Assembly: GCF_030384885.1 (NCBI RefSeq)
Contig: NZ_CP128613.1
DNA from: Escherichia coli
GTDB lineage: Bacteria > Pseudomonadota > Gammaproteobacteria > Enterobacterales > Enterobacteriaceae
DNA length: 64,000 nucleotides
Direction: 5' to 3' (one strand)
Below, one piece after another: positions 33,553 to 63,966 of this stretch. A program made the translations under genes and the position numbers. Position 1 is the first letter of the stretch, and each line of letters opens with the position of its first letter. The notes under the pieces are model-generated. The model was not told the DNA's origin, did not search any database, and saw only the letters and a list, made by a program, of their open reading frames with translations.

Positions 33553-35286
33553 GTGAAACAACAGATACAACTTCGTCGCCGTGAAGTCGATGAAACGGCA
33601 GACTTGCCCGCTGAATTGCCTCCCTTGCTGCGCCGTTTATATGCCAGCCGGGGAGTACGCAGTGCGCAAGAACTGGAACGTAGTGTAAAAGGTATGCTGC
33701 CCTGGCAGCAACTGAGCGGCGTCGAAAAGGCCGTTGAGATCCTTTACAACGCTTTTCGCGAAGGAACGCGGATTATGGTGGTCGGTGACTTCGACGCCGA
33801 CGGTGCCACCAGCACGGCTCTAAGCGTGCTGGCGATGCGTTCGCTTGGTTGCAGCAATATCGACTATCTGGTACCAAACCGTTTCGAAGACGGTTACGGC
33901 TTAAGCCCGGAAGTGGTCGATCAGGCCCATGCCCGTGGCGCGCAGTTAATTGTCACGGTGGATAACGGCATTTCCTCCCATGCGGGGGTTGAACATGCTC
34001 GATCGTTGGGCATTCCGGTTATTGTTACCGATCACCATTTGCCGGGCGAAACATTACCCGCGGCGGAAGCGATCATTAACCCTAACTTGCGCGACTGCAA
34101 TTTCCCGTCGAAATCACTGGCAGGCGTGGGTGTGGCGTTTTATCTAATGCTGGCGCTGCGCACCTTTTTGCGCGATCAGGGCTGGTTTGATGAGCGCGAC
34201 ATCGCAATTCCTAACCTGGCAGAACTGCTGGATCTGGTCGCATTGGGGACAGTGGCAGACGTCGTGCCGCTGGATGCTAATAATCGCATTCTGACCTGGC
34301 AGGGGATGAGTCGCATCCGTGCCGGAAAGTGCCGTCCAGGGATTAAAGCGTTGCTGGAAGTGGCCAACCGCGATGCGCAAAAACTCGCCGCCAGCGATTT
34401 AGGTTTTGCGCTGGGGCCACGTCTCAATGCAGCCGGGAGACTGGATGATATGTCCGTTGGTGTGGCGCTGTTGCTGTGCGACAACATCGGCGAAGCGCGA
34501 GTACTGGCAAATGAACTCGATGCGCTAAACCAGACGCGAAAAGAGATCGAACAGGGAATGCAGGTTGAAGCCCTGACCCTGTGCGAGAAACTGGAGCGCA
34601 GCCGCGACACGCTACCCGGCGGGCTGGCAATGTATCACCCGGAATGGCATCAGGGCGTGGTTGGTATTCTGGCTTCGCGTATTAAAGAGCGTTTTCACCG
34701 TCCGGTTATCGCTTTTGCGCCTGCGGGTGACGGTACGCTGAAAGGTTCCGGTCGCTCCATTCAGGGGCTGCATATGCGTGATGCGCTGGAGCGGCTAGAC
34801 ACACTCTACCCCGGCATGATGCTGAAGTTTGGCGGTCATGCGATGGCGGCAGGCCTGTCGCTGGAAGAGGATAAATTCGAACTCTTTCAGCAACGGTTTG
34901 GCGAACTGGTTACTGAGTGGCTGGACCCTTCGCTATTGCAAGGCGAAGTGGTGTCAGACGGCCCGCTAAGCCCAGCCGAAATGACCATGGAAGTGGCGCA
35001 ACTGCTGCGCGATGCTGGCCCGTGGGGGCAGATGTTCCCGGAGCCGCTGTTTGACGGTCATTTCCGTCTGCTGCAACAGCGGCTGGTGGGCGAGCGTCAT
35101 TTGAAAGTCATGGTCGAACCGGTCGGCGGCGGTCCGCTGCTGGACGGTATTGCTTTTAATGTCGATACCGCCCTCTGGCCGGATAACGGCGTGCGCGAAG
35201 TGCAACTGGCTTACAAGCTGGATATCAACGAGTTTCGCGGCAACCGCAGCCTGCAAATTATCATCGACAATATCTGGCCAATTTAG
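33553..35286 (+). CDS. recJ: Single-stranded-DNA-specific 5'-3' exonuclease RecJ (577 aa), GTG start
   Basis: DHH phosphoesterase motifs (VVGDFDADGATS, ITDHH). Confidence 0.95.
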   Translation: MKQQIQLRRREVDETADLPAELPPLLRRLYASRGVRSAQELERSVKGMLPWQQLSGVEKAVEILYNAFREGTRIMVVGDFDADGATSTALSVLAMRSLGCSNIDYLVPNRFEDGYGLSPEVVDQAHARGAQLIVTVDNGISSHAGVEHARSLGIPVIVTDHHLPGETLPAAEAIINPNLRDCNFPSKSLAGVGVAFYLMLALRTFLRDQGWFDERDIAIPNLAELLDLVALGTVADVVPLDANNRILTWQGMSRIRAGKCRPGIKALLEVANRDAQKLAASDLGFALGPRLNAAGRLDDMSVGVALLLCDNIGEARVLANELDALNQTRKEIEQGMQVEALTLCEKLERSRDTLPGGLAMYHPEWHQGVVGILASRIKERFHRPVIAFAPAGDGTLKGSGRSIQGLHMRDALERLDTLYPGMMLKFGGHAMAAGLSLEEDKFELFQQRFGELVTEWLDPSLLQGEVVSDGPLSPAEMTMEVAQLLRDAGPWGQMFPEPLFDGHFRLLQQRLVGERHLKVMVEPVGGGPLLDGIAFNVDTALWPDNGVREVQLAYKLDINEFRGNRSLQIIIDNIWPI

Positions 35287-40290: not shown

Positions 40291-40725
40291 CAGTGTTTCT
40301 CCTTTCGCCCGCCAGAGTAAAAAGCAACCGTTTACGTTATTGAAACTGTCTAAACATATGCTCGTGGAGTGCCAGTTTTTGCGAGGAAGGGGAGTTAGAG
40401 ACAGGAATTGCGGAGGCAATCACATAATCGTGGTTAAACCATGAAAATGAGAAGAGAACCTGACAATGGAATTATCTGTAATTTTCTCATATTGATATTT
40501 CATTAATCATTCTGGCATGTCGCACTCTCGCATTTAATCGTTTTTATCTGGATAGCGCTCTTTTGGTCGGCAATGTTGAAATAATGAAAGCGGCACAGAT
40601 TGAGGGGCAATAATTTGAACTCAGTCGCAAAATTATAATTAAAACGGTCATGCTACCTAATATATGCCCGTTTATTGCATCGCGAAATTTGAGAAGACAT
40701 AACTCATTAAATGAAAGGGATGCAA

Positions 40726-52498: not shown

Positions 52499-55400
52499 TT
52501 ACACCTCCACGCGGCCCAGCAGATAATGATGATGCTGGTGGACATGGCTAATGATGCGGCACATATCGTTCAGCTCCGGTGGTACGTTGTTGAACTGACC
52601 TTCGCTGTCGATGTTTAACACCCAGCTTTGGTTATTCAGACGTATGCGTACCTGGCAATCTTCCACAAGGAAGCCTGGGTTGCTGCTGTTATCAAAGTCT
52701 TGCGACAGGCTGAATACGGTGATTTTGTCTTTATATGGTTTACCGTTCCACGGGCAGAACTGGGCGCAGTTGCCGCATTCGTTACAGTAAGCGTCGAGGT
52801 GCAGCGTCTGGAAACGGTTCTGGAATCCAGGGACCGCAATTGAGACATTGGCGCGGTTAGGGCAGACATCCACACACTTGCTGCAAACGTAGTTACATTC
52901 AAGACAGCGAGAAGCTTCCTGAGCGACAAACGCATCACGATCGTCGCTGTTCACCAGGGTGACTGAGATATCGCCTTTACGTTGGTAGATTTCCGCCGGA
53001 TTGACGTTGTTCCAGTATTTATCGTTCTGGTGGGAACGGATATTTTCCCGACTAAGGATGGCATCGGTCGCCCGACGCGCGGTTCCGACAGCAGCGACAA
53101 TGGAGGATGGTCCGCGCTGTACGTCGCCGATCATAAAGACGTCAGTCAGACGAGTTTCGCCATTATGGTCGACGTCTGGCCAGCCGTTTTTGTCCAGCGG
53201 CACGCCCATCGCATTCAGGGCTTCAGTATCCTGCTGTTCACCAATGGCGGTGATCAGGCTGTCTACATGCAGTGTTACTGTTTCGTTGGTTTCAACCGGA
53301 CGGCGACGACCTTTCTCATCAGGTTCGCCAAGCGACATAACGCGCAAGGTTAAGGTGCCATCAGCATCGAAACGTTCCGGATTATTCAGGAAACGGAACT
53401 CCACGCCGTCGTGCAACGCTTCTTCATACTCTTCGCGCCATGCTGGCATCTCTTGCAGTGAACGACGGTAAACGACCGTTGCTTTTTCTACGCCTGGAAC
53501 GCGTAACGCCGCACGAGCGCAGTCCATTGCGGTGTTACCCGCCCCGACAACGACCACATGTTTGCCCAGCTTGAGCGCTGTGCCCTTGTTGTATTCACGC
53601 AGGAAGGGGAGTGATTTCCAGACATTTTGGTTGTCGCCCGCCAGTTTCACACCGCTATTTTTATCAGTGCCGGTGGCAATCAGAACATAGTGGAAGCCCT
53701 GATTTTTTAACTGTTCAACGGTCAGATCGGGTGAGCAGCCATACTCAAATTTCACGCCGTGAGCGGCAACAAAATCGATATCGTGCTGAATTAACTCTGC
53801 AGGAATACGGAACTGAGGAATGATATTTTTCACCACGCCGCCCGCATTGGCTTCGCGTTCAAACAGCGTAACCGGATGGCCCGCTCTGGCAAGGAAGTAA
53901 CCTGCTGCCAGACCCGCCGGACCTGCACCAATCACGGCAACTGGATGGCGTGAACCAGAACCGGCTGGTTTGTGCCAGCGTTGCTTATATTCATCCCAAC
54001 CTTTTTCCAGCGCGACTTTTTTCAGTTCGCGGATATTCAGCGCACTGTCGTAATCCAGGCGGGTACAGTTGTATTGGCACTGGTGATCGCAAATATGACC
54101 GGTAATGGCGGGCAGGGCGTTGCGTTGGTAGATGAGTTCCAGTGCGTCGGCATAGCGGTGTTCGCCAAGCAGACGTATGTATTCCGGAATATCCTGTTTA
54201 ATGGCGCAAGCAGTAACGCACGGTGCAACGTAGCAGTCGGTCAGCGGCAGGTCTTCTGCCACTTCAATACGCTCTTCTGGCTTCCAGTGTTTCTGAGTGT
54301 ATTCCATGGTTAACGCGTCTGCTGCCAGTTTGTTCAGTCGTTCGACGTCAACATGGTCAAGCCCCCAGGCGTCGGAGCCTTCCAGCTCGCGCATGCAGGC
54401 ACTTAAGCGCAGATAGCCGCCAGGTTTCAGCAGGTCGGTTGCCATAGTAATAGGGCGAATACCAGTATCAAAAATATCGCGGATAGTCAGCTGACTGGCA
54501 CCACCGGAATAAGAAATGGGCAGTTTGCCGTCAAAGGCGCGAGAGAGAACTGCTGCAACATTGATGGAGAGCGGGAACAGCGCACGGCCTGACATATACA
54601 TCTCTTCACCAGGCAGTGCGCCTTTATTGTTGATGGTGCCGAGAGTGTTAGTCAGTTTTACGCCAAAGCCGAGTGATTTTTCTTTTGCCAGTACCATCAG
54701 GCGTTCCAGCATTTCCAGCGCTTGCGTCAGCTTGAGGTCGTGATCAAATGACTCTTCTTTTAAGCCTATGTAACCGAAACCGCAGACATCGAGGATCTCA
54801 CGAACACGCGCGTACCCCAGTAAGGTCGGGTTGAGTTTCACAAAGGTATTGAGCCCTTTTTCTTCCAGCATGTAGCGGCAAATGGCTTCGATTTCATGCG
54901 GAGGACAGCCGTGCATCGTGGAGAGGGTAACGCCTTGTACCATGCTGGTGGGGATGCGTGCCGGTAAGGCCTGCAAGCATTCGCGTTTTTCCTGTAAGCC
55001 GTGGCGGGCTAAAAATGCGTCATCCTGGAGTAATTCATTCAGCGTATCGCGATATTGAGCGAATTTCGGATGGTCAGATGCGTCCATCATATTGTCGATG
55101 AACTGTTGCATCGGCGGTTGCTTAATACCTTCGAGGTTGTAACCGACGCTCATATTAAAGATGAACGATTTACCGGAATCAGAAGGCTGGAACATCGCTT
55201 CGAGAAGGTGCAGGGCAAACCAGGCTTTGAGGTATTCATCCCAGGCTTTAAGCAGGGTAAATTCGGTGGACCATTCGGTGTTAAAGCACTCGTCTTCGGC
55301 ATCAATACAGGGCTTTTCCAGCTCCAGGCGGTCAAGAATTTGGACGGTTTTTAGTTCGATGAAGCGTCCGCCAGTCAGCCAGGATGTGACAATATTTTGC

Positions 55401-55597
55401 GCGAGCTGCGTGTGCGGACCAGCGGCAGGGCCGACGGGAGTGGCACAGGTTTCACCGAAGACGCTAATAGTTTTACCTTTTACGGGTGAGTAAAACTGTT
55501 GCTCGGGAATACCAAAGATTGAGCGTTGTTGTTGGTATTCATCAAATATGCGCGTCAAAAGTTCCTCAAACGGAATGGGACGCATAATATCCCCCAT
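52499..55597 (-). CDS. ygfK: Large Fe-S/flavin oxidoreductase YgfK (GltD-like plus dihydropyrimidine-dehydrogenase-like and ferredoxin domains; putative selenate-reductase-associated, 1032 aa)
   Basis: 1032-aa ORF with pyridine-nucleotide disulfide-oxidoreductase GxGxxG motifs ([14 protein letters not shown]) and C-terminal Cys clusters. Confidence 0.88.
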   Translation of the reverse strand: MGDIMRPIPFEELLTRIFDEYQQQRSIFGIPEQQFYSPVKGKTISVFGETCATPVGPAAGPHTQLAQNIVTSWLTGGRFIELKTVQILDRLELEKPCIDAEDECFNTEWSTEFTLLKAWDEYLKAWFALHLLEAMFQPSDSGKSFIFNMSVGYNLEGIKQPPMQQFIDNMMDASDHPKFAQYRDTLNELLQDDAFLARHGLQEKRECLQALPARIPTSMVQGVTLSTMHGCPPHEIEAICRYMLEEKGLNTFVKLNPTLLGYARVREILDVCGFGYIGLKEESFDHDLKLTQALEMLERLMVLAKEKSLGFGVKLTNTLGTINNKGALPGEEMYMSGRALFPLSINVAAVLSRAFDGKLPISYSGGASQLTIRDIFDTGIRPITMATDLLKPGGYLRLSACMRELEGSDAWGLDHVDVERLNKLAADALTMEYTQKHWKPEERIEVAEDLPLTDCYVAPCVTACAIKQDIPEYIRLLGEHRYADALELIYQRNALPAITGHICDHQCQYNCTRLDYDSALNIRELKKVALEKGWDEYKQRWHKPAGSGSRHPVAVIGAGPAGLAAGYFLARAGHPVTLFEREANAGGVVKNIIPQFRIPAELIQHDIDFVAAHGVKFEYGCSPDLTVEQLKNQGFHYVLIATGTDKNSGVKLAGDNQNVWKSLPFLREYNKGTALKLGKHVVVVGAGNTAMDCARAALRVPGVEKATVVYRRSLQEMPAWREEYEEALHDGVEFRFLNNPERFDADGTLTLRVMSLGEPDEKGRRRPVETNETVTLHVDSLITAIGEQQDTEALNAMGVPLDKNGWPDVDHNGETRLTDVFMIGDVQRGPSSIVAAVGTARRATDAILSRENIRSHQNDKYWNNVNPAEIYQRKGDISVTLVNSDDRDAFVAQEASRCLECNYVCSKCVDVCPNRANVSIAVPGFQNRFQTLHLDAYCNECGNCAQFCPWNGKPYKDKITVFSLSQDFDNSSNPGFLVEDCQVRIRLNNQSWVLNIDSEGQFNNVPPELNDMCRIISHVHQHHHYLLGRVEV

Positions 55598-55918
55598 AAC
55601 CCTCTCCTTAGCTTATACAGATATCATTGAATGACCGGTGTTGAGAAATCCGGTGGTTTACGGGGATAGAGCAACAATCGCACCACTCTTGCCAGGTTTA
55701 GTGGGAAATATAAAAAAATGTGAGGCGGCTCGAAACTTAAGGGCTTTTTGTGAATGAACTCACAGGTGCCAAATGAGAATTAAAATCACTCCTGAAAATT
55801 ATTATTACCAGCCCATTTATCACTTTTTCTCTTTTCTCAAAATCAGTGATTCCTTATCATAATGATAAAGAAGGCTGGATGGTTTAAATATTTGAACGCA
55901 AACGTTTAACTACGTTTT

Positions 55919-56497
55919 CTAAATTTCAGTATACCTTTTTTGCGCTGTAATAAAGTCGTCCGGAGTATCAATATCTAAAATTATTTCTGCATTTTCTATT
56001 TCGACGGAATAATGTTCTCCCATAAGGAGTGCCTGACGCATATTGGTGACATTGGGTCGCTGGGTTGCCTGCATCAGGCATGGCTTTGACACTAAAATCG
56101 GATGGCCGGGGATACCTTTATGGAGTGGCAGTATTGAGCCATCATTACGTAACGACCAGATTTTTCTAAAAATATCGATGGTGAGGGTTGGCATGTCACC
56201 GTGGGTGAGAAAACAATGTTCGGTTTGCACCGCGGGTACTGCGGCCTTTACTGATGTCAGTAAACCCTGCGCATAATTTGGGTTGTGGATAATAGTGATA
56301 TTACTCTGGTTCGCATAACGTTCGTGCAGTTCATTACCACGATAGCCGGTGACTAAAATAATTCGGCTACAAAACTGCAACGCATTTTTGATACTTGCAT
56401 CAAGAATTGTTCCCTCTTGCCAGGGTAACATCATTTTCCATTGCCCCATTCTTGATGATAATCCGGCAGCGGTAATTATACAGTCGATGGCTGACAT
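55919..56497 (-). CDS. mocA: Molybdenum cofactor cytidylyltransferase MocA (YgfJ, 192 aa)
   Basis: MobA-like nucleotidyltransferase N-terminus (AIDCIITAAGLSSRMG). Confidence 0.88.
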   Translation of the reverse strand: MSAIDCIITAAGLSSRMGQWKMMLPWQEGTILDASIKNALQFCSRIILVTGYRGNELHERYANQSNITIIHNPNYAQGLLTSVKAAVPAVQTEHCFLTHGDMPTLTIDIFRKIWSLRNDGSILPLHKGIPGHPILVSKPCLMQATQRPNVTNMRQALLMGEHYSVEIENAEIILDIDTPDDFITAQKRYTEI

Positions 56498-56599
56498 AGT
56501 GGTTCCATTATTTATAGGGGCTAATAACGCCTGATAATTGCGTTACTTCCTGATGGATTAAGTTGGGGATAATTTATCCCAGAGAGGTCATAAAGACTC

Positions 56600-57370
56600 G
56601 TGAAAAGTATAGTTGACCCATCGGCATTATTCATTGATTTAGGCGCGCAGAAACGTCCCACTGTGATTTCTGTTGTTGGGGCTGGGGGGAAAACCAGCTT
56701 GCTTTTTTGGCTGGCAGAACTGCTCCAGGCTAGCGGCAGGCGAGTGTTAATCACTACGACGACACATATGTTTATGCCAACGTCTCACTGGCCCGTGGTT
56801 TTCTGTCGTGATCCCGCCATGCTTCCTCATGCGTCTCTTACATCCCCCATTTCATTTTGTTTTCACAGCTGGAAAGCGAACCAGGGAAAAGTGCAGGGAT
56901 TTATGCCAGAAGCGATTGATGCACTGGTGCAACGACCAGAGTGTGACGTAATTCTCATTGAGGCAGATGGCTCGCGTGGAATGCCGTTAAAAGCGCCTGA
57001 TGAGCACGAACCTTGCATACCCAAAAGCAGTTGCTGCGTGATTGCTGTGATGGGAGGACATATTTTGGGTGCGAAAGTGAGCACAGAAAATGTCCATCGC
57101 TGGTCGCAGTTTGCTGATATTACCGGGTTAACACCTGATGCAACCTTGCAACTGAGCGATCTCGTTGCGCTGGTTCGCCACCCTCAGGGCGCATTTAAAA
57201 ACGTACCGCAAGGTTGTCGGCGAGTCTGGTTCATTAACCGTTTTTCTCAATGTGAGAATGCGATTGCGCAAAGCGAGCTCCTTCAACCGCTGCAACAACA
57301 CGACGTAGAGGCAATCTGGCTGGGCGATATACAAGAACATCCTGCAATCGCGCGCAGATTTGTGAATTAG
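56600..57370 (+). CDS. yqeC: YqeC, marker protein of selenium-dependent molybdenum hydroxylase loci (256 aa)
   Basis: P-loop-like VVGAGGKTS; pairs with yqeB. Confidence 0.85.
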   Translation: MKSIVDPSALFIDLGAQKRPTVISVVGAGGKTSLLFWLAELLQASGRRVLITTTTHMFMPTSHWPVVFCRDPAMLPHASLTSPISFCFHSWKANQGKVQGFMPEAIDALVQRPECDVILIEADGSRGMPLKAPDEHEPCIPKSSCCVIAVMGGHILGAKVSTENVHRWSQFADITGLTPDATLQLSDLVALVRHPQGAFKNVPQGCRRVWFINRFSQCENAIAQSELLQPLQQHDVEAIWLGDIQEHPAIARRFVN

Positions 57371-57417: not shown

Positions 57418-59042
57418 ATGAATATTTTCACAGAGGCTGCAAAACTTGAAGAGCAAAATTGTCCGTTTGCGATGGCGCAAATTGTTGATAGCCGAGGCTC
57501 GACTCCCCGCCATTCTGCACAAATGTTAGTGCGCGCCGATGGTTCTATCGTCGGTACAATTGGTGGTGGAATGGTTGAGCGGAAGGTGATTGAAGAGTCG
57601 CTTCAGGCATGCAGGAACGTAAGCCGCGATTATTCCATGGACGTATGGCTCGTAACGGTGTGGATGCTGTCGGGTCAGATTGTGGAGGTGCAATGTCCGT
57701 GTTTATCAGCGTCCATGGTATGCGTCCTCGTCTGGTGTTGATTGGCGCGGGGCATGTCAATCGGGCGATAGCCCAGAGTGCGGCGCTATTAGGATTTGAT
57801 ATTGCCGTTGCCGATATTTATCGCGAAAGCCTTAATCCTGAATTATTCCCATCATCAACCACGCTTCTCCATGCTGAGTCGTTTGGTGCGGCAGTGGAAG
57901 CACTGGATATTCGCCCTGATAATTTTGTCCTGATTGCCACGAATAATCAGGATCGTGAAGCCCTCGACAAACTCATTGAACAGCCCATTGCATGGCTGGG
58001 GTTGCTGGCAAGTCGCCGCAAGGTTCAGCTTTTCCTACGTCAATTGCGTGAGAAAGGCGTGGCTGAAGAACATATTGCCCGTTTACATGCGCCCGTTGGT
58101 TACAACATAGGTGCGGAAACGCCGCAGGAGATCGCCATCAGCGTGCTGGCAGAAATATTACAGGTGAAAAATAACGCGCCGGGTGGGCTGATGATGAAAC
58201 CTTCTCATCCTTCCGGACACCAGCTGGTGGTGATTCGCGGTGCGGGGGATATCGCCAGTGGTGTGGCGCTACGTCTGTATCATGCGGGTTTTAAAGTGAT
58301 CATGCTGGAAGTGGAAAAACCGACAGTGATTCGTTGTACCGTGGCGTTTGCCCAGGCCGTGTTCGATGGCGAAATGACGGTCGAAGGCGTCACTGCCCGC
58401 CTGGCAACCAGCTCTGCGGAAGCGATGAAACTTACCGAACGCGGATTCATCCCTGTGATGGTAGATCCCGCCTGTTCATTGCTTGATGAACTGAAACCGC
58501 TTTGCGTGGTGGACGCTATTCTGGCGAAACAGAATTTGGGTACGCGGGCAGATATGGCACCAGTAACAATCGCGCTTGGGCCGGGCTTTACTGCTGGGAA
58601 GGATTGCCATGCGGTAATTGAAACAAATCGCGGGCACTGGCTCGGTCAGGTGATTTACTCTGGTTGTGCGCAGGAGAATACCGGTGTTCCCGGCAATATT
58701 ATGGGGCATACCACCCGACGGGTGATCCGTGCTCCTGCTGCAGGCATTATGCGATCCAACGTGAAATTAGGCGATCTGGTGAAAGAGGGCGATGTGATTG
58801 CCTGGATTGGTGAGCATGAAATTAAAGCACCGTTGACGGGGATGGTGCGTGGCTTGTTGAACGACGGACTGGCGGTGGTCGGTGGTTTTAAAATTGGTGA
58901 TATCGATCCACGTGGTGAAACGGCTGATTTCACCAGCGTTTCTGATAAAGCCCGGGCAATTGGCGGCGGCGTACTTGAGGCGTTAATGATGTTGATGCAT
59001 CAGGGCGTTAAAGCGACAAAAGAAGTGCTGGAAGTGGCTTAA
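57418..59042 (+). pseudogene. yqeB: XdhC-family molybdo-hydroxylase maturation protein YqeB, reading frame interrupted in this sequence (N-terminal 107-aa ORF and 477-aa ORF in different frames)
   Basis: XdhC N-domain (MNIFTEAAKLEEQNCPFAMAQIVDSRGSTPRHSAQMLVRADGSIVGTIGGGMVERKVIEESLQA) is in frame 1 and stops at 57741; the rest (RKPRLFHGRMARNGVDAVGSDCGGAMSVF..., Rossmann LVLIGAGHV...) is in frame 0, open from 57594. The span is 1625 nt, one short of the 1626 nt needed for a single 541-aa reading frame. Confidence 0.55.
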
Positions 59043-62769: not shown

Positions 62770-63966
62770 TTAAGGTGCTACAGAGTGTTTGCCTTCCCAG
62801 ACAACTTCGCGGTAGTGCTTCACGTCGGTGTCGCCTTCAGTGCTGATAACCAGCACCACTGCATCTTTGTTCAGCGCCAGTTTTTCCATCAGGCTTTGAC
62901 GTTGCGGGTGATAATGAACCGCCGCGAGAACGCCTAAACCGACAGCGCCGGATTCACCGGAGATGATGCGCGGGTCGTTGCCGTACGGATTACCCAGCAC
63001 GCGCATACCTAATGCGGCAACGCTGTCCTGGCAGGAGATGAATTGGGTGGCGCAGTTACGTAGGATTTCCCAGCCCAGTGGGTTAGGTTCGCCGCAAGCC
63101 AGGCCCGCCATGATAGTGGCCATATCGCCGCCAACGTTGACGATGTCGCCTTTGACACCAGAACGATAGATACAGTCAGCTTTGTCAGGTTCAACAATAA
63201 TGCTGTGCAGATTTTGCGGGCTGTAGACGTCGACCAGATAACCCAGTACGCCGCCGGCCATCGCGCCGACACCGGCTTGCAGCAGAACGTGTGTTGGGGT
63301 TACGCCCATTTCACGCATTTGCTCGACGGCTTCATCTGCCAGAGTGGCATAGCCCTGCATGATCCAGGTTGGGATTTTGGTGTAGCCTTCCCAGGCGGTA
63401 TCTTGCACCACTTCCCAGCCGTGTTGCTGCGCGTGTTGCATGGTCAGACGAACGGTATCGTCATAGTTCATATCAGTGACGATGCACTCGGCTCCGAGGT
63501 TCAGAATGGCGTCAACGCGTTCCTGAGCGGAACCTTTCGGCATGTAAATTACCGCGTTCTGACCGAGTTGCTGTGCTGCCCAGGCAACACCGCGCCCGTG
63601 GTTGCCGTCGGTCGTTGTAGCAAATGTCATTTTTTCGCCGATGGCACTTTTCAGATGCTCGAATGACAGTGTTTCGATATCAAGATGATATTTTTCGCAC
63701 AACAACTGAGCGATGGCATATGCGCCGCCGAGCATTTTGAATGCGTTCAGACCGAATCGTTTTGATTCGTCCTTAACGAGAATTTTTTTCACCCCAAAAA
63801 GGTTTGCGAGATCGTCCAGCGCGCAAAGTGGTGTTGGGCGATAGCCAGCAATTTTCTGGTGGAACTGGCGCGCCAGTTTTGCCTGGCTTTGCGAAAAGAG
63901 CGGTGATGTTTCGCCGTTGAAAAATTTGTTATCGGCGATATCAATCTTCAATGAGAAAACGGACAT
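62770..63966 (-). CDS. ygeX: 2,3-diaminopropionate ammonia-lyase (PLP-dependent, 398 aa)
   Basis: PLP fold-type II sequence; begins MSVFSLKIDIADNKFFNGETSPLFSQSQAKLARQFHQKIAGYRPTPL. Confidence 0.9.
   Translation of the reverse strand: MSVFSLKIDIADNKFFNGETSPLFSQSQAKLARQFHQKIAGYRPTPLCALDDLANLFGVKKILVKDESKRFGLNAFKMLGGAYAIAQLLCEKYHLDIETLSFEHLKSAIGEKMTFATTTDGNHGRGVAWAAQQLGQNAVIYMPKGSAQERVDAILNLGAECIVTDMNYDDTVRLTMQHAQQHGWEVVQDTAWEGYTKIPTWIMQGYATLADEAVEQMREMGVTPTHVLLQAGVGAMAGGVLGYLVDVYSPQNLHSIIVEPDKADCIYRSGVKGDIVNVGGDMATIMAGLACGEPNPLGWEILRNCATQFISCQDSVAALGMRVLGNPYGNDPRIISGESGAVGLGVLAAVHYHPQRQSLMEKLALNKDAVVLVISTEGDTDVKHYREVVWEGKHSVAP

Follow-up and report, generated by a model that had tools for sequence, protein, structure and literature searches.

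A sigma-54 promoter and its probable upstream enhancer in the spacer between mocA and ygfK of Escherichia coli

The untranslated spacer between mocA and ygfK is, with a probability that we put at about three in four, an enhancer-promoter region that drives ygfK-ssnA-ygfM-xdhD, an operon for the anaerobic degradation of uric acid and purines. A preliminary description of this DNA had placed a promoter and regulatory input for these genes here, and that expectation is borne out by sigma-54 occupancy in K-12, by blocks of conserved sequence and by a YgeV iModulon that includes the operon and leaves out mocA. In the mechanism that we propose, sigma-54 RNA polymerase sits on 55686..55670 as a closed complex, as published ChIP-seq shows for K-12, whose sequence is the same here. 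This complex would be unable to open alone and would require the enhancer-binding protein YgeV (PAS, AAA+, Fis-type HTH), which would most likely bind the dyad at 55868..55854, aided by nearby half-sites, and reach the polymerase by DNA looping. CRP-cAMP, centred at -97.5 and -67.5, may bend the intervening DNA, where other sigma-54 promoters use IHF, and its sites would confer glucose sensitivity; CRP binding has been published in vitro. The transcript would begin some 62 nt ahead of the ygfK ATG, and its short leader would contain a small stem-loop at the 5' end and a strong ribosome-binding site. YgeV probably senses uric acid, or a metabolite derived from it, as the inducer.

The window, that is the whole stretch of 64,000 nt that was analysed, carries mocA at 56497..55919 and ygfK at 55597..52499, both on the minus strand, as the ORF listing and the RefSeq annotations of K-12 and an identical strain show. 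The two genes thus lie on the same strand, as had been described, and are read from right to left in window coordinates. Their products belong to the Pfam families NTP_transf_3 (MocA) and Fer4_20 plus Pyr_redox_2 (YgfK). The gap is 321 bp here and equally 321 bp in K-12 (3015739-3016059), and the RefSeq annotation places no feature inside it. Its GC content is 37%, the whole window having 51.5%, and 100-bp segments within it dip to 29-33%. Among the 16 same-strand intergenic gaps of the annotated K-12 cluster it is the largest, the runner-up being the 164 bp between xdhD and xanQ, so that its description as unusually long and AT-rich holds. The A/T tracts and inverted repeats that had been mentioned are also present: ATTTTTTTATATTT at 55718..55705, a palindrome with 11-nt arms at 55850-55872 and an AT palindrome at 55882-55897 (both from a repeat search), and the CRP core at 55749-55764. 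A 701-bp query around the spacer matched E. coli 2013C-4282 and ST3 at 100% identity; some 5,170 further complete genomes matched it at 95-99%. Two small ORFs on the opposite strand of the spacer (39 aa and 34 aa) are without support. The features discussed below are as follows, from the mocA side to ygfK.

55598..55918, minus strand: mocA-ygfK intergenic region, 321 bp, 37% GC
55891..55911, minus strand: upstream conserved element AGTTAAACGTTTGCGTTCAAA, consensus TTAAnCGATTGCGYTCAMA
55854..55868, no strand assigned: dyad TTATCAT-T-ATGATAA, core TATCA-N3-TGATA, proposed YgeV enhancer (UAS)
55833..55842, minus strand: TTTTGAGAAA block with a TGAGA/TGATA half-site, some 20 bp from the right half of the dyad on its ygfK side
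55771..55789, minus strand: conserved block GTGATTTTAATTCTCATTT, which holds a left half-site TTCTCAT
55749..55764, no strand assigned: CRP site TGTGAGTTCATTCACA, TGTGA-N6-TCACA core 10/10, centre about -97.5
55719..55734, no strand assigned: second, CRP-like site TTCGAGCCGCCTCACA, core 8/10, centre about -67.5
55705..55718, minus strand: T/A tract, read from the sequence, between the CRP-like site and the promoter
55670..55686, minus strand: sigma-54 promoter GTGGTGCGATTGTTGCT, -24 GG and -12 GC
55658..55660, minus strand: predicted transcription start, 12 nt past the -12 C
55634..55654, minus strand: 5'-proximal stem-loop ACCGG-N11-CCGGT, in the MFE and the centroid structure, within a 5' UTR of about 62 nt
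55604..55609, minus strand: Shine-Dalgarno AAGGAG, conserved context ctAAGGAGAGGGTT
55595..55597, minus strand: ygfK start codon

The promoter is the best documented of these features. Sigma-54 has been mapped genome-wide in K-12 by ChIP-seq (Bonocora et al. 2015, PMC4591121), and peak OS31 of that study is an intergenic, sense site with the motif GTGGTGCGATTGTTGCT, a fold-above-threshold (FAT) of 26 and a distance of 62 nt from ygfK, flagged as a promoter previously predicted by EcoCyc. The 17-mer at 55686..55670 in the window equals the OS31 motif with no changes. On the ygfK strand, TGGTGCGATTGTTGCT at 55685..55670 agrees with TGGCAC-N5-TTGCW at 9 of the 11 specified positions and has its GG and GC doublets 10 nt apart; the -24 element reads TGGTGC here, deviating from TGGCAC. 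An alternative sigma-54 reading, TGGCAAGAGTGGTGCG, was rejected, as it has 3 mismatches, is worse and differs from the published site. Work cited in PMC4591121 presents ygfK as responsive to sigma-54 overexpression. Four further sigma-54 sites lie in the same cluster, upstream of xdhA, ygeW and ygfT and inside yqeC, the last being a validated promoter that drives yqeB (PMC4591121). The ygfK promoter is therefore already in the literature, and the dyad, its phasing and the common CRP grammar described below are what this analysis adds.

Conservation of the promoter was followed in 80 loci around ygeY orthologs, one genome per species, in each of which the genes of the cluster were mapped. A full ygfK start was present in 49 of them, and in 48 of these TGG-N8-TTGC(T/A) stands 57-130 nt ahead of the ATG, in genera from Escherichia via Serratia, Erwinia and Edwardsiella to Aeromonas and a Vibrio. 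The lone exception is an Ideonella MAG, in which ygfK stands behind a coding region, within an operon; this locus has no nearby ygeV, no sigma-54 element and no dyad. We found no mapped ygfK transcription start in the literature, and the start listed above was predicted from sigma-54 geometry; it fits the distance of 62 given in PMC4591121. Since this geometry puts the start at about 55659 and makes the 5' UTR 62 nt long, some 260 of the 321 bp would lie upstream of it. The spacer had been called a 320-bp leader, a term that does not fit, because only about 62 nt would be transcribed from this promoter and the other 260 bp or so would be enhancer and architectural DNA.

Among the upstream elements, the dyad has its centre at about -202 from the predicted start and 176 bp upstream of the -24 TGG. 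When the regions upstream of the four intergenic sigma-54 promoters of K-12 (xdhA, ygeW, ygfK and ygfT) were compared, with at most 1 mismatch and on either strand, TCATATTGATA was the only 11-mer common to all. It is exact at xdhA, ygeW and ygfT, and at ygfK reads TCATAATGATA. Dinucleotide-preserving shuffles matched a four-region 11-mer in 2 of 500 cases, and an 11-mer exact in three regions in none of 500. Of 48 regions upstream of ygfK orthologs, 45 contain the pattern T(A/C)TCA-N3-TGA(T/G)A, with its centre at -155/-156, -166 or -176/-177 from the -24 TGG and its 3-bp spacer freely variable, G/C included. Orthologs of ygeW also keep the dyad upstream (mostly at -208/-209, also at -188, -198 and -221), as do those of xdhA (-105 and -124). 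In K-12 the distances are -105/-126 at xdhA, -208 at ygeW and -173 at ygfT. At xdhA there are two dyads 21 bp apart, while the ygfK spacer has one full dyad plus half-sites. The 23 distance classes, which are phylogenetically not fully independent, are phased at 10.3-10.5 bp (Rayleigh R of about 0.6 and p of about 1e-4; at 10.5 bp, R=0.61 and p of about 9e-5); the same test gave no signal at 9, 9.5, 11.5 or 12 bp.

Over the 64 kb and 40 kb that were scanned, the dyad is also specific to these promoters. A PWM was trained on non-Escherichia ygfK sites only and scanned over 40 kb of K-12 and over the 64-kb window. Its five best matches in the 40 kb of K-12 were mocA/ygfK (23.4 bits), ygfT/uacT (20.9), ygeV/ygeW (20.6), the yqeC-internal place (18.0) and actS/xdhA (15.1), and these coincide with the five sigma-54-bound places of the cluster in K-12. 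The dyad of the ygfK spacer is the top match in the 64-kb window as well as in the K-12 locus, and is the most symmetric and highest-scoring copy in the cluster. Specificity for one set of promoters, conservation across genera and placement on one face of the helix together form the signature expected of an enhancer for an enhancer-binding protein. Among the proteins of the cluster only YgeV, with its PAS, Sigma54_activat and HTH_8 domains, is a DNA-binding protein, and the dyad is, judged from sequence, most likely the enhancer for this activator. The literature that we searched yielded no published YgeV operator and no YgeV DNA-binding data.

Expression data link the operon with YgeV. The YgeV iModulon, in which membership is a matter of correlation, comprises ygfK, ssnA, ygfM, xdhD, xdhABC, ygeWXY, hyuA, ygfT and uacT, with mocA outside. 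In the original iModulon paper, the activity of this iModulon was connected with ethanol stress in baeR/cpxR knockouts and not with purines. Published accounts indicate that ygfT expression falls in a ygeV mutant and that formate-dependent consumption of uric acid requires ygeV. Uric acid is reported to induce ygfK strongly under anaerobic conditions (bioRxiv 10.1101/2022.07.24.501321), and the purine input proposed in the preliminary description is thus plausible, presumably by way of YgeV.

It is also conceivable, if unlikely, that the sigma-54 promoter is as described and the dyad is the operator of another protein, either Fur-like or some other repressor or co-regulator, with YgeV binding elsewhere, for example at the 55771-55789 block or the 55891-55911 element. 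The E. coli dyad is AT-rich and loosely resembles a Fur box, a 19-mer of K-12 agreeing at 12 of 19 positions by eye. Enhancer-binding proteins usually occupy two or more sites, and the ygfK spacer offers one full dyad only, together with two more conserved blocks to which no protein is assigned. However, the 3-bp spacer of the dyad varies, G/C included, unlike that of a Fur box; the dyad follows the sigma-54 promoters of the cluster specifically and in helical phase; and the cluster encodes no DNA-binding protein other than YgeV. These points argue against this alternative.

Several further copies of the dyad, or sequences like it, were seen outside the spacer. Between ygfT and uacT there is an exact copy at 40485-40497 (TTCTCATATTGATAT), about 173 bp upstream of the ygfT sigma-54 motif TATGCCCGTTTATTGCA at 40663-40679, a published, weak motif; the ygfT/uacT spacer of K-12 holds a perfect 17-bp palindrome, TCGTGGTTAAACCACGA (about 35213-35229 of the locus L003). 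A weaker dyad-like palindrome, ATATCAAGATGATAT, with a PWM score of 14 bits, lies at 63678-63690 in the coding sequence of ygeX and may be due to chance. Within the coding sequence of yqeC there is a dyad TCTCA-ATG-TGAGA at 57245-57257, with a sigma-54 motif at 57001-57017 and a CRP-like site at 56942-56957. This dyad is about 235 bp downstream of the yqeC-internal sigma-54 promoter, with about 167 bp left between it and the yqeB ATG. Nearly all Enterobacterales orthologs keep it though the encoded residues change, and its half-sites mostly co-vary, TCTCA with TGAGA and TATCA with TGATA, which suggests a putative enhancer embedded in the gene.

Both CRP sites are located between the dyad and the sigma-54 promoter. 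The first holds the sole perfect TGTGA-N6-TCACA core in the 64 kb and is conserved as gTGa-N6-TCAcaaa in an alignment of 31 Enterobacterales orthologs. The second, conserved as TT.GA-N6-cTCACaa in the same 31, has its centre 41.5 bp before the -24 TGG. CRP-like sites occur at similar offsets from the -24 element at the other sigma-54 promoters in the cluster, namely -41.5 at xdhA, -42.5 at ygfT, -51.5 at ygeW and -52.5 at the yqeC-internal promoter, the last two being one helical turn farther than at xdhA, ygfK and ygfT. Like ygfK, the xdhA, ygeW, ygfT and yqeC-internal promoters combine a sigma-54 ChIP-seq site (PMC4591121) with a dyad and a CRP-like site, and like ygfK the genes of the first three, with the yqeC-internal promoter's excepted, belong to the YgeV iModulon. 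The ygfK promoter differs from the others in its extra, perfect CRP site. We regard it as an even bet that T(A/C)TCA-N3-TGA(T/G)A, 13 bp long, is the operator of YgeV (IsrR) and that the five promoters share a grammar of phased dyad and CRP or CRP-like site, in which the latter precedes the -24 element by 41.5-52.5 bp and CRP stands in for IHF as the architectural factor.

Consensus scans of the spacer for other regulators gave little. The IHF consensus WATCAANNNNTTR was not found with up to 1 mismatch, nor the FNR consensus TTGAT-N4-ATCAA with up to 2 mismatches, nor the Nac core; the ArcA scan gave a single weak match (4 mismatches in 15) and the Fur scan weak matches (6-7 mismatches in 19). 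An anaerobic input had been foreseen, and in the form of an FNR site it finds no counterpart here at this threshold; none of the signals seen bears on the selenium input named with it. With CRP sites present and IHF and FNR consensuses absent, we propose that CRP-cAMP may bend the DNA between enhancer and promoter and tie the operon to carbon status. Such a position would also explain repression by glucose. At the sigma-54 promoters glnAp2 and dctA, CRP acts negatively, so that its effect at ygfK could be of either sign. The targets predicted from genomic SELEX of CRP include ygfK, ygeV<>ygeW and ygfT<>ygfU (PMC3105977). Glucose apparently suppresses the use of uric acid, though not in every glucose-containing medium (bioRxiv 10.1101/2022.07.24.501321), and the authors of a 2025 study describe the pathway as repressed by glucose and report a native Crp site at ygeV-ygeW. 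CRP-cAMP is thus the clearest additional input, one that the preliminary description had not foreseen, and the identifiable inputs of the ygfK control region are YgeV, probably with uric acid as its signal, and CRP.

Beyond the dyad and the promoter, the alignment of the 31 Enterobacterales orthologs showed four conserved blocks, the two CRP sites among them being described above. The TTTTGAGAAA block has the consensus TTTTGA(G/T)AA among the 31 orthologs and forms a direct repeat with the right half of the dyad; an additional TGATA is found at 55822..55818. The block at 55789..55771, with the consensus TGATTTTAATTCTCATT (TGAtTtt.ATTCtCAtt) in the 31 orthologs, is invariant within Escherichia, and its TTCTCAT is identical to the left half of the dyad at ygeW and ygfT; from its sequence it may be a weak second activator site. 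The element at 55911..55891, with the pattern TTAAnCGATTGCG(T/C)TCA(A/C)A, lies 43-44 bp upstream of the dyad centre. This position is fixed in E. coli, Citrobacter amalonaticus, Edwardsiella, Buttiauxella, Serratia, Trabulsiella and Pluralibacter, and the element is kept also where the upstream gene is other than mocA. It matches the PurR box ACGCAAACGTTTGCGT at 13 of 16 positions in the window and at 12 of 16 in K-12, with a poor left half. Across genera this likeness is conserved only in the right half and the central CG, and for that reason the element, which lies near the mocA stop, is not called a PurR operator here.

Polymorphism within Escherichia avoids the same blocks. An alignment of the spacer from the window, K-12 and a divergent Escherichia (E69) has 51 variable columns. 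Among these three sequences, 6 of 140 columns vary in the marked blocks, against 45 of 185 outside them (Fisher p=4e-7). The six in-block variants lie in loops or spacers, at the centres of the dyad and of the upstream element, in the N6 of the two CRP sites and in the hairpin loop. Between the window strain and K-12, 15 of the 321 spacer positions (4.7%) differ, and 7 of these crowd into 55869-55883. These 15 bp, directly upstream of the dyad, are a local divergence hot spot between conserved blocks.

Very little speaks for the spacer being a long transcribed leader, produced by read-through from mocA or from an upstream sigma-70 promoter, in which control would act on the RNA through a riboswitch or attenuator for purines, molybdenum cofactor or selenium, and we consider this reading highly improbable. 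Its support is the absence of an intrinsic terminator after mocA, where the scan did no better than shuffles, and the small conserved stem-loop in the last 60 nt. The only terminator-like match on the minus strand is at 55593..55577, inside the start of ygfK, so read-through from mocA is possible and read-through RNA probable. Such RNA is unnecessary to explain ygfK expression. In the iModulon data mocA and ygfK are not co-regulated, which also argues against the leader. Read-through with no internal promoter had been named as the case that would overturn the promoter; read-through may occur, but it is not the sole source of transcription. A permissive Rfam scan of 2.5 kb around the spacer found no match inside it at E up to 10, riboswitches included; the single match, IS009 (E=3.3), is at 56502-56550, outside the spacer. 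No sigma-70-like promoter was found on the coding strand of the spacer, the scan again finding no more than shuffles. What is conserved are palindromes in the DNA and promoter elements, held at fixed helical phase, and not helices that covary, and the 66-nt leader was not more stable than its shuffles (z=+0.98).

The stem-loop itself is supported by pairing in 94.8% of cells against at most 47% in slid controls among 23 Enterobacterales sequences, with one pair covarying AU/GC. The conserved part of the UTR folding is the 5-bp stem only, and more distant genera have unrelated hairpins at this position. At most it would be a hairpin that stabilises the 5' end. The 5' end of the UTR at 55654-55660, AAACC (ATCC or ACCC in relatives), is complementary to GGGTT between the Shine-Dalgarno and the AUG. 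This pairing with 55598-55609 appears in many single-sequence folds, and its covariation is not convincing.

The least probable reading by far is that the spacer is a functionless AT-rich gap whose motif matches arise by chance from composition: AT-rich DNA does give many weak matches to AT-rich consensuses, and the promoter and terminator scans yielded no more than shuffles, but sigma-54 occupies the site in vivo in the published K-12 ChIP-seq, the blocks are conserved across genera with shuffle controls seldom as good, and Escherichia polymorphisms avoid them.

The enhancer-promoter region proposed here resembles known sigma-54 systems. In promoters of the glnAp2/NtrC type, a closed-complex -24/-12 promoter is combined with a dyad activator site more than 100 bp upstream, in a face-of-helix relation that goes with looping. 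The ygfK region shares the -24/-12 promoter, the distant upstream dyad and a helix-face relation that implies looping; it differs in the operator sequence and in having one full dyad instead of tandem sites, and its spacer lacks an IHF consensus and has CRP sites in the intervening DNA instead. The prpBCDE operon is a sigma-54 catabolic operon with an enhancer-binding protein, PrpR, encoded nearby, CRP catabolite control and the use of IHF. Likewise, ygfK belongs to a sigma-54 catabolic operon with the activator gene nearby and CRP in the control region, and by analogy the CRP sites may be parallel in function, although regulator and operator differ and prp works with IHF as well.

Sigma-54 control of these genes is also predicted outside Enterobacterales. 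In Clostridiales, the sigma-54 enhancer-binding protein DioR has been predicted to control the orthologs of ygeW-ygfK-ssnA-ygeY, dpaL, yqeB and yqeC-ygfJ (PMC6615313), which means that sigma-54 control of the pathway recurs across phyla. As described, DioR is set apart from YgeV as a different member of the regulator family, with a different gene order and operator. Rearranged forms of the cluster were also observed (loci L038, L040, L044, L046 and similar; Cedecea sulfonylureivorans, Buttiauxella sp., Rahnella, Mixta and Erwinia). There mocA adjoins ygeV, and ygfK stands behind yqeA at a distance of about 1.2 kb. In these loci ygfK retains its own sigma-54 element and mostly the dyad too, of which L038 and L040 have no exact copy. 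The control region therefore travels with ygfK and not with mocA.

In the window, yqeB (plus strand, start at 57418), which serves in selenium-dependent molybdenum cofactor maturation, has a one-base deletion at 57609-57610, GGCATTGCAGG to GGCATGCAGG, relative to 2013C-4282 and K-12, in 8 kb that are otherwise identical (8000/8001). The deletion splits the gene into the ORFs 57418..57741 and 57609..59042; a true pseudogene, an error in sequencing and an edit are all conceivable.

The pathway has recently been tied to the disposal of urate by gut bacteria and to engineered probiotics for gout (bioRxiv 10.1101/2022.07.24.501321 and the 2025 study). In the probiotic strains the native control regions were replaced, because, according to the authors, native regulation is poorly understood. 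What is gained here is a concrete map of one such control region, with a probable activator site, its phase-locking to the promoter and the CRP sites in between. For a pathway of current medical interest this enhancer grammar adds a modest but useful detail, which is ordinary in kind and no new type of biology. If it is true, the region would offer a natural example of sigma-54 promoters that use CRP as a looping co-factor, and the shared grammar of dyad and CRP site would be the cis-regulatory code of a gut-relevant anaerobic uric-acid regulon.
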